Origin: an uncultured Myxococcales bacterium
GTDB lineage: Bacteria; Myxococcota_A; Polyangia; Haliangiales; Haliangiaceae
Direction: 5' to 3'
NCBI GenBank assembly: GCA_942492525.1
Contig: CALOFI010000005.1
Span: forward strand, 1-64,000
DNA: 64,000 bases
Below, one piece after another: positions 41,423-44,077 of the stretch (the stretch's first letter is position 1; the number at the start of each line of letters is the position of its first letter). The notes under the pieces are model-generated. The model saw nothing but the letters and a program-made list of their open reading frames with translations. It was not told where the DNA came from and did no database searches. Made by a program: the position numbers and the translations under genes.

Positions 41423-42617
41423 CTACCGCGGCGGCCAGCGGACATCGCCGGCGTCGTCGACGACGTACGTGACCGCGTGTGCCTCGTCGAGCGCGGGCAC
41501 CGACCAGCGCGTCACCAGCTCGTCGATCACGCGCGCCGGCACCGGCTCGGCGCGCCGCCGGTTGCGCGCGGCCTGCTCGCCGGCCGCCGCCTCGCAGTAG
41601 ACGACGTGGACCCGCGCCCGGTAGCCGCGCAGCAACGCGATCACGCCGCCGCGCAGCCGCGCGCTCAGGTTGGTGGCGTTCCACGCGAAGCCGCTGGCCG
41701 GCGCGCAGGTGGACCCGCGCGGCCTCCTTCGCGGCGGCGATCACCGCGCCCTGCCCGTCCGCGGGATCGATCGCGAGCTCGTCGCGCAGCGCGTCGAGCG
41801 AGACCACCGGCAGCGCGGCGCCCGGGCCGCGTAGCCAGGTGTCCTTGCCGCTGGCCGGCAGGCCGCTCATGACGATCACCTCGGCGCTGGTGTCGTCGTG
41901 GACCGCGACGTCGGGCGGACGCGCCCGCGCCGCCTCGGCCTCGAAGTGCACGACCCGCGCGTGGTCGCTGGCGAAGCCGCGCGGTCGGTCGCGCACGCCC
42001 AGCTCCGCGCACAGCTCGAGCCACAGCGCGGTGTGATCGATCATGCGGGCCTGATCGCCCGGCTCGGCGCAGCGCCGGCCGCGCGCGTCGGCCTCGGCGA
42101 CCAGCGCCAGCCAGTCGTGGCGCAGGCGCAGCGACAGCTGGGTGGCCAGGCGCGCGGCGTCGGCGGGCGCCCGGGTGATGCCGAAGAACGGCACCTGGTG
42201 GTGGCGGACCAGCGCGCAGACGTGCTCGCGGACCCCGAACGGCACGCCGACCCGCCACAGCCAGCCGCGGACGATCGCGTCGCCGCGCGCGGAGTGGCCG
42301 CGCGACGAGATCCGTCCGTCGGGCTCGGTGCGGGTGGTCGCCGGCTTGCCGACGTCGTGCAGCAGCGCCGCGGCGAAGGTGATGGTGCGGCCGGGCGCGT
42401 CGAGCGACTGCCACGCCGGCAGCGCGATCAGCGCGTCGAGCACCTGGAGCGTGTGGGTCCAGACGTCGCCCTCGGCGTGGAAGCCCGGATCCTGCGGCGT
42501 CGCGGCCAGCGTCGCCGCGGCCACGCCGTGCGCGCCGTCGAGGAAGGCGCGGACCGCGGCGACGCCGACGCCGTCGCCCGGCGCCGGCGTCACCGCGTCG
42601 AGCGCGGCGCCGCTCAC
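41423..42617 (-). CDS. HD-Pnk-like bifunctional end-healing enzyme: N-terminal HD phosphoesterase + C-terminal P-loop polynucleotide kinase (frameshift at about 41695)
   Basis: HD domain HAEGDVWTHTLQVLDAL...AALLHDVGKP...RGHSARG...VRHHQ. P-loop EVIVMSGLPASGKDTW. The C-terminus continues in another frame as ...WNATNLSARLRGGVIALLRGYRARVHVVYCEAA...DEAHAVTYVV (ORF 41423..41644). GTG start at 42617 overlaps the ligase stop (GTGA). Confidence 0.6.
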
Positions 42618-43426
42618 GGGTTCGCCTCGTCGGGATCGACCGCGAACAGCTCGACGCCGTCGGCCAGCTGGTTGGGCACGATCGTGCGCTCGAGCCAGTG
42701 GCTGCCCGAGTCGACGACCGCGGTCAGGAAGCTGGGACGGATCCACTTGAGCCGCTCGACCACGCGGCCGTCCTCCTCGATCTTGAGGTATAGCCCCTCG
42801 GCGTCGTCGGAGCCGTCGGTCTCGCGCGCGGCCCGCGCGGGCTCGACGCCGCACCCGGCGGCCGCGGCGGCCAGCGCCTCGCGCCAGCCCGCGCGCTTGT
42901 ACAGGCTGCGCGCGACCAGCGCCGGCAGCGCGTCGGGATCGTCGACCACGCCCTGCCACAGCACCGGCACCGAGCGCACGCACCGCGCCGGCGCCAGCAG
43001 CGCGGCGCGGCGAGCCGTCGACCAGAACGTTCCGTCCGGCGACCGGACGTCGAACTCGAGCCAGTAGTGCGGCAGCTGGTCGTAGAAGATCGTGTGCTTG
43101 GCGTAGAGCCACTCGCCGTAGATCACCAGGCCGCCGGCGAGCAGGCGGCGCAGCGCGACCGCGTGGGTGGCGGCCCACTGCTTGAACAGATCGAAGTGGC
43201 GCTCGCGCGGCCCGCCGGTGAGGACGTGCCCGCGGCTCTGCAGGCGCAGCTCGCCGTCCTCGCCCAGCGACAGCCCGGTGTTGGCGCCGTCGAGCTTCTC
43301 CTCGACCACGACGAAGCGCCCGCGCAGCGCGGCCAGCGGCACCTGCGCGAGATCCTCGTCGCCGGGCTGCAGCCGCGAGCCCTGCAGGTGCGGCGTGCGC
43401 GGGTAGCGGTGGATGGGCGCGATCAT
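42614..43426 (-). CDS. ATP-dependent RNA ligase (nucleotidyltransferase family)
   Basis: Motif I VVVEEKLDGAN (KxDG). ...LVIYGEWLYAKH... is motif IV-like. About 270 aa, Rnl-type size. Confidence 0.65.
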   Translation of the reverse strand: MIAPIHRYPRTPHLQGSRLQPGDEDLAQVPLAALRGRFVVVEEKLDGANTGLSLGEDGELRLQSRGHVLTGGPRERHFDLFKQWAATHAVALRRLLAGGLVIYGEWLYAKHTIFYDQLPHYWLEFDVRSPDGTFWSTARRAALLAPARCVRSVPVLWQGVVDDPDALPALVARSLYKRAGWREALAAAAAGCGVEPARAARETDGSDDAEGLYLKIEEDGRVVERLKWIRPSFLTAVVDSGSHWLERTIVPNQLADGVELFAVDPDEANP

Positions 43427-43433
43427 CGTGGCC

Positions 43434-44077
43434 TCAGGGGGTCGCCACGCAGACGATGTGCCCGAGCACGTGCTCGACGCGGGCGCGGCGCGCGCCGGCG
43501 TCGCGGAACAGCGCCTCCAGGCGCGCGCCGTCGAACAGCTGGACGTGCTCGGGGTTGTCGTCCTCGTGCGAAGGCACCGTGGCGATCACCGCCGCGCGCG
43601 CGACCCGCAGCGCCTCGGCGGCGGCCGGCGCCGGATCGGCGAGGTGCTCGAGGACCTCGAGCACGGTCACGACGTCCGCGCTGCGATCGTGCAGCGGCAG
43701 GGCGCGGACGTCGCCGCGCGCCGCGGCGAGCCGCTCGACGCCGCCGCGCGCACCCGCTCGAGATCGAGCGCGCGGTGCGGCAGCACGTCGATCGCGGTCA
43801 CCGCGAGCTCGCGCAGCTCGTCGAGGACCGGCCACAGGAACGCGCCGCGCCCGGTGCCGAGATCGACGAGATCGCGCGCGCCCAGCCCGCGCAGCGCGCC
43901 GATCACCTTGCGGACGCGGGGCAGCCCGGCGGTGCGCTTGAAGCGATGCAGGCGCAGGGCTGCGGCCTCGGCGGCCGCGACCGCGGCGGCGTCGTCGAGC
44001 GCGGCCGCGCCCGGACCCAGCGCGCCGCGCGCGTACGCGCCGGCGAGCCACAGGTAGTGGGACTCGTCGGAGATCAC
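43434..44077 (-). CDS. Class I SAM-dependent methyltransferase (possible Hen1-like RNA 3'-end 2'-O-methyltransferase), frameshift at about 43740
   Basis: Motif I VDLGTGRGAF. ...ADVVTVLEVLEHLADP... is post-I/II-like. The N-terminal half is in ORF 43667..44077 and the C-terminal half in ORF 43434..44051, in a different frame. Confidence 0.5.

Follow-up and report, generated by a model that had tools for sequence, protein, structure and literature searches.

Does a methyltransferase gene that lies tightly packed against genes for an RNA ligase and an RNA end-healing enzyme belong to the same repair pathway, and if so, what could it contribute? This question is raised by a stretch of 64,000 nucleotides from an uncultured Myxococcales bacterium of the Haliangiaceae (positions 1 to 64,000 of contig CALOFI010000005.1, GenBank assembly GCA_942492525.1), which is called the window in the following. 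Open reading frames (ORFs) and three-frame translation resolve positions 41423-44077 into three co-oriented coding regions on the minus strand, in the order methyltransferase (MT), RNA ligase (Rnl) and HD-Pnk, a phosphoesterase of the HD type fused to a polynucleotide kinase. The locus is a copy of a widely conserved bacterial operon of this order, which probably repairs broken RNA ends. Its parts are as follows.

43434..44077, minus strand: MT gene, class I S-adenosylmethionine (SAM)-dependent methyltransferase (from ORFs, Pfam, 848 homologues and DNA alignment to the relatives L005 and L001)
43427..43433, minus strand: spacer of 7 nt between the MT stop codon and the ATG of the ligase
42614..43426, minus strand: ATP-dependent RNA ligase, 270 aa, the only intact ORF of the three
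42614..42617, minus strand: GTGA overlap of the ligase stop codon (TGA) and the HD-Pnk start codon (GTG)
41423..42617, minus strand: HD-Pnk gene, N-terminal HD phosphoesterase and C-terminal P-loop polynucleotide kinase, about 397 aa once repaired

The MT gene starts with GTG at 44077, stops with TGA at 43436-43434 and encodes about 214 aa after repair of a frameshift that is treated below. A previous inspection of the letters, here called the sequence-only reading, had identified all three gene products correctly, as matches to Pfam (RNA_ligase PF09414 with E 4.8e-31 for the ligase, HD and AAA_33 in the third gene) now show. The motifs it had pointed out are found at aa 71-80 of the MT (VDLGTGRGAF) and at aa 44-49 of the ligase (motif I, KLDGAN). 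It was equally right about the tight coupling of the genes: the GTGA overlap lies at 42617-42614 of the minus strand, and the distance between MT and ligase, given as about 8 nt, measures 7 nt. The 4-nt overlap of ligase and HD-Pnk is identical in the relatives L001, L005 and L006, and at the junction of MT and ligase relatives usually have a 4-nt overlap as well, compared with the 7-nt spacer here. Such start/stop overlaps suggest that the trio may be translationally coupled. Scans for consensus promoters and terminators between 41100 and 45200 found nothing, which is uninformative at 75% GC.

The strongest evidence for a common function comes from the distribution of the trio. A scan of one genome per species with the pattern P[STA][KHR]xD[DN]NP[EHQ]H detected a member of the MT family (about 213 aa) in 393 species genomes, and when 1.84 billion cluster representatives were searched with a profile, 206 clusters were obtained at E <1e-30, from high-GC to very low-GC organisms. 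The neighbourhood was studied in a sample of about 160 loci, composed of the best 80 genome loci and of 80 metagenome loci seeded with low-GC members of the family. All close relatives examined keep the order MT, RNA_ligase and HD/AAA_33, usually with 4-nt overlaps. The 80 genome loci belong to Myxococcota, Acidobacteriota, Chloroflexota, Planctomycetota, Alpha- and Betaproteobacteria, Actinomycetota, Eremiobacterota/Vulcanimicrobiota, Armatimonadota, Latescibacterota and Spirochaetia, and 60 of them carry a contiguous MT-Rnl-HD-Pnk operon. Among the other genome loci, five have an insertion before HD-Pnk (5/80), four hold the three genes in another order (4/80), four have MT and ligase with no HD-Pnk within the stretch fetched (4/80), four reach the end of the contig (4/80) and three have the MT alone (3/80). 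The metagenome loci (27-70% GC) contain the contiguous trio in 44 of 80 cases, the order HD-Pnk, MT, Rnl in 6 of 80, and MT followed by Rnl and then the contig end in 20 of 80; where the sampled 80 left room, none lacked both ligase and HD-Pnk. The recurrence of this gene order over 160 loci and more than 10 phyla is far beyond chance.

The linkage of the three genes survives rearrangement. The order HD-Pnk, MT, Rnl was observed in one soil lineage (L159, L162, L164-L166, L173) and the order Rnl, HD-Pnk, MT in Eremiobacterota-like genomes (L068, L074). Gene fusions provide a second, independent type of connection: a protein of 561 aa (P0369) consists of a complete Rnl2-type ligase (RNA_ligase and T4_Rnl2_C) followed by a complete MT of the same family, and a protein of 436 aa (P0366) is a fragment of a similar ligase-MT fusion. 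In a further protein of 832 aa (P0494) the MT is followed by pieces of a minimal ligase, and this may be a mis-called or frameshifted operon. This conservation of the trio across phyla, together with the MT-ligase fusions, strongly supports the proposal of the sequence-only reading that the genes form one module for RNA end healing and sealing.

All-against-all clustering of the flanking ORFs yielded no fourth conserved operon gene. The largest family of neighbours was present at 12 of about 160 loci, and on this ground a further operon member such as Tpt1, RtcB or a toxin was rejected. At 12 of about 160 MT loci (L161:4160-5899 and 11 similar ones) a gene for an ADP-ribosylglycohydrolase-NADAR fusion lies immediately upstream of the MT, a neighbour that may point, for some lineages, to a connection with nucleic-acid repair that depends on ADP-ribose or NAD. 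Members of the MT family were also seen in very large viral contigs (L089:4944-5588, 7041-7964; L090:5019-5639, 5742-6626, 3153-3788). On a 458-kb contig of IMG/VR a distance of 1.4 kb separates the MT from a T4-Pnkp-like kinase plus PNK3P/HAD protein downstream of it, and in the metagenome-assembled genome (MAG) of a giant virus it adjoins a metallophosphoesterase and a Macro-domain protein.

A different explanation would be that the MT is a small-molecule methyltransferase that merely neighbours a module of ligase and HD-Pnk alone. Its automatic annotation as UbiE/UbiG-like and its structural neighbours, which are small-molecule methyltransferases, would agree with this. However, the adjacency to ligase and HD-Pnk is near-universal in more than 10 phyla and from 27 to 75% GC while the other neighbours are all variable, the MT is found fused to RNA ligases, and stop and start codons overlap in relatives. 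The linkage data and the ligase fusions effectively refute this explanation, to which we assign next to no probability. Membership of a small-molecule methyltransferase family without Hen1-like features had been named by the sequence-only reading as an outcome that would count against its proposal; despite the UbiE/UbiG labels, linkage and fusions oppose such an assignment.

Given that the MT belongs to the module, what kind of methyltransferase is it? The repaired protein matches Methyltransf_11 over its full length (E 1.6e-11) and has 848 homologues of about 211-214 aa that are 61-85% identical and carry UbiE/UbiG-like automatic labels. With a Rossmann-like fold and a glycine-rich motif I it has the hallmarks of a class I SAM-dependent methyltransferase. 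The AlphaFold2 model (predicted local distance difference test score, pLDDT, of 94) has a canonical class I fold after a family-specific N-terminal extension of about 65 aa with many invariant basic residues (R18, H43, R44, K46, R47, R53). Three sequence elements are of particular importance.

43829..43867, minus strand: SAM-binding motif I of the MT, VDLGTGRGAFLWP, aa 71-83
43641..43667, minus strand: MT motif TVLEVLEHL, whose E-x-x-E-H, conserved in at least 90% of the diverse members, is aligned with EVIEH of Hen1
43533..43580, minus strand: signature of the MT family, TVPSHEDDNPEHVQLF, which corresponds to the pattern used for the genome scan

Some features of the MT may recall Hen1, the RNA 3'-terminal 2'-O-methyltransferase of the Pnkp-Hen1 repair system. 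The top nine sequence matches of the MT in the PDB include the methyltransferase domains of Hen1 (3jwg, 3jwh, 3jwi, 3jwj) and plant HEN1, with alignments (E 5e-7 to 6e-6) that cover the Arg-containing helix, motif I and E-x-x-E-H. These alignments begin earlier than those to other methyltransferases and pair R53 with QR, the two motifs I with each other, and TVLEVLEHL with TVIEVIEHL. R53, E140, E143 and H144, which are conserved in at least 90% of diverse members, pair with the QR...EVIEH motifs of Hen1; H177 is conserved to the same degree (at least 90%) and, by a reading of the motifs by eye, may correspond to the distal His of Hen1. Other class I methyltransferases, UbiG for instance, may have an E-x-x-E-H motif too.

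Nevertheless, the MT as a true Hen1 is ruled out. The Hen1 equivalog model gave 30.8 bits against a cutoff of 340 and aligned to the core only (model positions 261-397 of 462), and the best NCBIfam match was MftM with 59.7 bits, above Hen1. The N-terminal domain of about 250 aa with which Hen1 binds and activates its ligase is not found in the MT, which has about 213 aa and only its own extension of 65 aa. Fold searches placed generic or small-molecule methyltransferases first, and Hen1 was not among the top matches. From these comparisons the MT is best described as a distinct family, not Hen1, that appears dedicated to RNA-ligase systems, and for its methyl acceptor there are candidates to be weighed.

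The leading candidate is the 2'-O of the terminal ribose at the 3' end; the characterised precedents for a methyltransferase coupled to end-healing and sealing enzymes are all 2'-O-methyltransferases. It is also possible, if rather unlikely, that the trio is real and the MT acts in a way other than Hen1, methylating a base near the break, a terminal phosphate, or one of its two partner proteins (ligase or HD-Pnk); the MT might even be mainly a structural activator of the ligase. This would fit the ranking of the fold searches, in which small-molecule or sugar O-, C- and N-methyltransferases precede and Hen1 falls outside the top matches, as well as the preference for MftM in NCBIfam and the conserved basic extension (H43 R44 F45 K46 R47 ... 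R53), which is absent from Hen1. The presence of Hen1 domains in the top nine PDB sequence matches and the alignment of the Arg before motif I, of motif I and of E-x-x-E-H speak for Hen1-like 2'-O-methylation.

The ligase matches Pfam RNA_ligase with 108.6 bits (cutoff 27) over profile positions 3-171 of 171. Its motif I is placed as follows.

43280..43303, minus strand: ligase motif I, EEKLDGAN, with the predicted adenylylated lysine K44 at 43297-43295

Motifs I, Ia, III, IIIa, IV and V are all present (EEKLDGAN at aa 42-49, LQSRGH at 62-67, YGEWLYAKHT at 103-112, HYWLEFDV at 120-127, EGLYLKIE at 210-217 and RLKWIRPSF at 225-233), with key residues that do not vary among 37 close and 73 diverse orthologues. 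The sequence-only reading had made its case dependent on the context of lysine adenylylation in a full alignment, and with six conserved motifs this context is there. The AlphaFold2 model (pLDDT 91.5) found only RNA ligases as nearest structures in the fold search, namely Naegleria Rnl, REL1, T4 Rnl2 and archaeal Rnl3; among them Naegleria Rnl and T4 Rnl2 come closest in fold, which the ligase of Pnkp does not, so that the Rnl2/Rnl5 nucleotidyltransferase fold is its closest structural neighbour. A search of the PDB with the single sequence gave no match. Accessory domains were not detected, neither the C-terminal domain of Rnl2 nor the N-terminal OB domain of Rnl5, with about 187 of the 270 aa aligning to the core; correspondingly, the Pfam model T4_Rnl2_C and the NCBIfam models for Rnl2 and DRB0094 did not match, and NCBIfam has no model for this ligase. 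An N-terminal YPRTPHL segment is a characteristic feature. By its sequence and modelled fold, the protein is predicted to be a minimal stand-alone adenylyltransferase of the Rnl2/Rnl5 type.

The third gene encodes, after repair, a protein of 397 aa with the HD domain at 53-147 and AAA_33 at 247-369 (E 5.9e-18). Intact relatives have 385-400 aa and the identical domain set. The two domains occupy the following positions.

42075..42482, minus strand: HD phosphoesterase domain, aa 46-181 (PF01966, HDIG TIGR00277)
41423..41870, minus strand: P-loop polynucleotide kinase domain (AAA_33), interrupted by a frameshift at 41690

In 57 orthologues the HD domain has the conserved motifs HAEGD, LLHDVGKP, GH, HHQ and EADARGR, and the HD region of CCA-adding enzymes is its closest match. 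The kinase half contains the Walker A motif GLPASGKD (aa 252-259), SLDALR (SLDxLR), WNATN and RNRRR (RNRxR) and is weakly similar to bacterial Pnkp, PNK-3'Pase, PSTK and a phage polynucleotide kinase (PHROG). It is not a Pnkp: TIGR04075 gave 17.1 bits against a cutoff of 750 and covered the kinase region only, and the phosphoesterase is an HD domain. Once repaired, it has the architecture known from Runella slithyformis, one polypeptide chain of about 390 aa in which HD precedes the P-loop kinase, and through the GTGA it lies directly downstream of, and overlapping, the ligase ORF.

How could the three proteins work together? The Runella study (PMC6097658) describes HD-Pnk as a 2',3'-phosphoesterase and 5'-OH polynucleotide kinase that converts ends with a 2',3'-cyclic phosphate (2',3'>p), 3'-phosphate or 2'-phosphate and a 5'-OH into 3'-OH and 5'-PO4 ends, and it reports that the ligase adjoining HD-Pnk forms the enzyme-AMP intermediate and seals no standard RNA or DNA substrate among those tested. 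In the Pnkp1-Rnl-Hen1 system the ligase needs its partners, SAM speeds up ligation at least 10-fold, and the product is a 2'-O-methylated junction that resists re-cleavage. For the operon studied here, a transesterifying nuclease would first generate ends with 2',3'-cyclic phosphate and 5'-OH. The HD domain of HD-Pnk would then take off the cyclic, 3' or 2' phosphate while its P-loop domain phosphorylates the 5'-OH, and the minimal Rnl2/Rnl5-like ligase would join the 3'-OH and 5'-PO4 ends by way of a Lys44-AMP intermediate. The MT of about 213 aa would act on the same substrate, most likely by methylating the broken end, with ribose 2'-O-methylation of the 3'-terminal nucleoside as leading candidate, and the minimal ligase may depend on the MT, its mark, or both in order to seal. 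tRNA or rRNA cleaved by nucleases would probably be the natural substrate. In this scheme we infer the RNA target, the methylated atom and the activation of the ligase; that ribotoxin damage is repaired and that the junction becomes 2'-O-methylated are reasonable proposals.

A bolder formulation, which we put forward only tentatively, is that the MT defines a third, independently evolved system of 'repair with immunity', in which it 2'-O-methylates the healed 3' end and either this mark or the MT itself licenses a minimal ligase that is otherwise inert. Licensing by the MT would explain that the Runella ligase is adenylylated and yet seals nothing alone.

Several observations weigh against RNA repair with Hen1-like methylation. 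The best curated match of the MT is a glucan 2-O-methyltransferase, MftM, and its fold is not specifically Hen1-like. The trio does not lie in a defence island, and PADLOC matched no system to the trio, the sole match being a weak one of the MT to mad2. According to the Runella paper (PMC6097658), HD-Pnk heals DNA ends too and its ligase sealed none of the substrates tested. Finally, two of the three genes, MT and HD-Pnk, are frameshifted in the window.

Some of these points would suit a module that works on DNA or on nucleic acid ends in general, such as DNA breaks with 3'-phosphate and 5'-OH, and not on RNA cleaved by ribotoxins. The Runella protein is described as a DNA/RNA end-healing enzyme (PMC6097658), its partner ligase sealed neither RNA nor DNA among the substrates tested, and no toxin or defence context is found at the locus. 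On the other hand, the ligase belongs to RNA_ligase PF09414 and its nearest structures are Naegleria Rnl, REL1, T4 Rnl2 and archaeal Rnl3, the HD domain is most like those of tRNA CCA-adding enzymes, MT members of large viruses adjoin T4-Pnkp-like kinase-phosphatases, and the fusion partners of the MT are RNA ligases of the Rnl2 type. Action on DNA is thus improbable, and repair of RNA ends is the function we favour.

The frameshifts, which the sequence-only reading had missed, require a closer look: MT and HD-Pnk are each frameshifted and the ligase alone is an intact ORF. Neither span is a multiple of 3 (644 nt for MT, 44077-43434; 1195 nt for HD-Pnk, 42617-41423), and Pfam domains are divided over two frames in both genes (Methyltransf_12 positions 1-33 and 35-91; AAA_33 positions 1-68 and 89-139). 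The frame plot of G+C content at third codon positions (GC3) has a phase change within both genes, and tblastn with the proteins of a syntenic relative (L005/L009, Myxococcales MAG PRO3, about 80% identical) placed MT and HD-Pnk each in two frames. The DNA alignment to the intact relatives L005 and L001 revealed exactly one frameshifting indel per gene, all other indels being multiples of 3.

43745..43752, minus strand: frameshift site of the MT gene, one G missing near 43750 (GAGCGGGTGC-GCGCGG here, GAGCGGGTGCGGCGCGG in relatives)
41688..41692, minus strand: frameshift site of the HD-Pnk gene, one extra base at 41690 (cagcgGcttc here, cagcgcttc-type in relatives)

Repair of a single base at each site gives an MT of 214 aa and an HD-Pnk of 397 aa, both with full-length domain matches, and in the MT the repaired reading ERVRRGGVERL brings back the family-invariant GG (G111, G112). 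Programmed frameshifting was excluded, as the intact relatives have single ORFs without an indel at either site. The mis-framed product of 439 aa in a public protein collection (P0122) is 100% identical to the ORF in the window, and since it comes from an NCBI contig, the frameshifts belong to the deposited assembly.

Are these indels real? In a decaying pseudogene operon only the ligase would be made and the system would be non-functional in this organism. Apart from the presence of the frameshifts in the deposited assembly, such decay would be in line with the four frameshifted genes in about 7 kb, and with the OPT change, which is a 13-nt alignment gap and no simple homopolymer slip. The other two of the four genes, compared with L005, are the OPT oligopeptide transporter (41301-39419, minus strand; shifted at about 39636) and a Ser/Thr kinase (46725-44993, minus strand; at about 45425-45470), and no shift affects the ligase or five further syntenic genes. 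As two unrelated neighbouring genes are hit too, the pattern looks like a local problem of assembly quality, and assembly error is likelier than decay. Moreover, each indel in the trio makes a G run one base longer or shorter, and the catalytic motifs of MT and HD-Pnk are all intact. The ratio of nonsynonymous to synonymous substitution rates (dN/dS) relative to L005 amounts to 0.24 (MT), 0.38 (ligase) and 0.34 (HD-Pnk); downstream of the frameshifts, with 0.22 in MT and 0.41 in HD-Pnk, it is not raised and equals that upstream. Long-read MAGs of relatives (L018 and L047, Microflora Danica contigs) show fragmentation of the same kind, with 2 to 6 frame-shifted pieces in place of the ligase and HD-Pnk genes, an illustration of how error-prone such high-GC assemblies are. 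We therefore regard assembly error as the probable cause and true pseudogenisation as the less probable one, though with a substantial share of the likelihood. GC3 segmentation indicated further candidate frameshifts, namely same-strand phase changes without a boundary stop at about 26718, 27260 and 37805; at about 37805 an N-terminal TPR-like ORF seems to run on into a Ser/Thr kinase ORF in another frame.

The neighbours of the trio are genes for a TPR protein, Ser/Thr kinases, the OPT transporter and a guanylate cyclase. The G+C content is about 75% outside the first approximately 8 kb, and positions 1-8500 have 45-49% G+C. This low-GC segment contains short ORFs of pilin and pseudopilin families on the minus strand (N_methyl at 3040-3774, GspH at 4148-4768, PilX_N at 1855-2397) and may represent either a foreign island or a chimeric join made in assembly; an rRNA operon was rejected, as there were no Rfam or tRNA matches. 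An M20 peptidase domain is split on the minus strand, with domain positions 1-81 in 8605-9840 (after AAA_16) and 112-206 in 7824-8414, and this split at the transition of GC content may be another frameshift or an artefact of joining.

How does the operon relate to known repair systems? Its closest published relative is the candidate cluster Tpt1/MTase-HIT/ligase/HD-Pnk of Runella slithyformis (Munir & Shuman 2017; Munir et al. 2018, PMC6097658). As compared by description, HD-Pnk there agrees in domain order and is of similar size, the ligase ORF directly precedes it and overlaps the HD-Pnk start with its 3' end, and the gene of a SAM-dependent methyltransferase is located just upstream of the ligase. 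That methyltransferase is fused to HIT and 152 nt away from the ligase, whereas the MT here, with about 213 aa, stands alone, and its gene abuts or, in relatives, overlaps the ligase gene. No HIT domain can be present on the MT here because it ends 7 nt before the ligase ATG, and no HIT motif (HxHxHxx) was found in the 150 best representatives of the family. Tpt1 is not adjacent to the trio, which is flanked by the TPR protein and the OPT transporter; no search for it was made in the remainder of the window.

Pnkp1-Rnl-Hen1 resembles the trio in having kinase/phosphatase, ligase and methyltransferase on three separate polypeptides, and there methylation is coupled to ligation and stimulates it. 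The Pnkp-Hen1 systems of Clostridium thermocellum and Anabaena variabilis combine four chemical activities, the same set as predicted here, and the Hen1 domain can be aligned with the MT over the Arg helix before motif I, motif I and E-x-x-E-H. The architecture differs entirely, with a trifunctional Pnkp in place of the split ligase and HD-Pnk, and the family cutoffs for Hen1 and Pnkp lie far above the scores obtained here. Of the nick-sealing RNA ligases Naegleria gruberi Rnl5, T4 Rnl2 and trypanosome REL1, Rnl5 has an N-terminal OB domain and Rnl2 a C-terminal domain, both absent from our ligase. Phage T4 Pnkp and Rnl1 follow the same heal-and-seal logic for 2',3'>p/5'-OH breaks, but this system has no methyltransferase, and its HAD-type phosphatase and Rnl1-type ligase are unlike the trio. 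To the sequence-only reading the operon had resembled a hybrid of HD-Pnk/Rnl and Pnkp/Hen1 modules; since the MT is not a Hen1, an independent assembly of analogous activities describes it better.

The pair of ligase and HD-Pnk has been known since 2017, three-protein methylating repair is known from Pnkp1-Rnl-Hen1, and a methyltransferase beside ligase and HD-Pnk has already been noted once, as the MTase-HIT fusion in the Runella cluster (PMC6097658). In the searchable literature we found neither the stand-alone MT family of about 213 aa nor its near-obligate, phylum-spanning linkage to ligase and HD-Pnk or its fusions with Rnl2-type ligases, all of which a comparative-genomics survey of 2016 may cover. 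Although the frameshifts lower the value of this particular locus, the family has consequences for annotation, as proteins of about 213 aa labelled UbiE/UbiG-like should be flagged as RNA-ligase-associated. The trio could also supply new enzymes for the manipulation of RNA ends.

For the biology of these bacteria, the near-constant linkage of the MT, its fusions with ligases and its viral Pnkp neighbours point to methylation as an integral step of the ligase/HD-Pnk pathway. This offers a testable explanation for the inert ligase of the Runella type and a candidate for an independent origin of repair with methylation. If the MT marks or licenses the junction, the operon would represent a widespread, independent counterpart of Pnkp-Hen1 repair, with immunity to re-cleavage.

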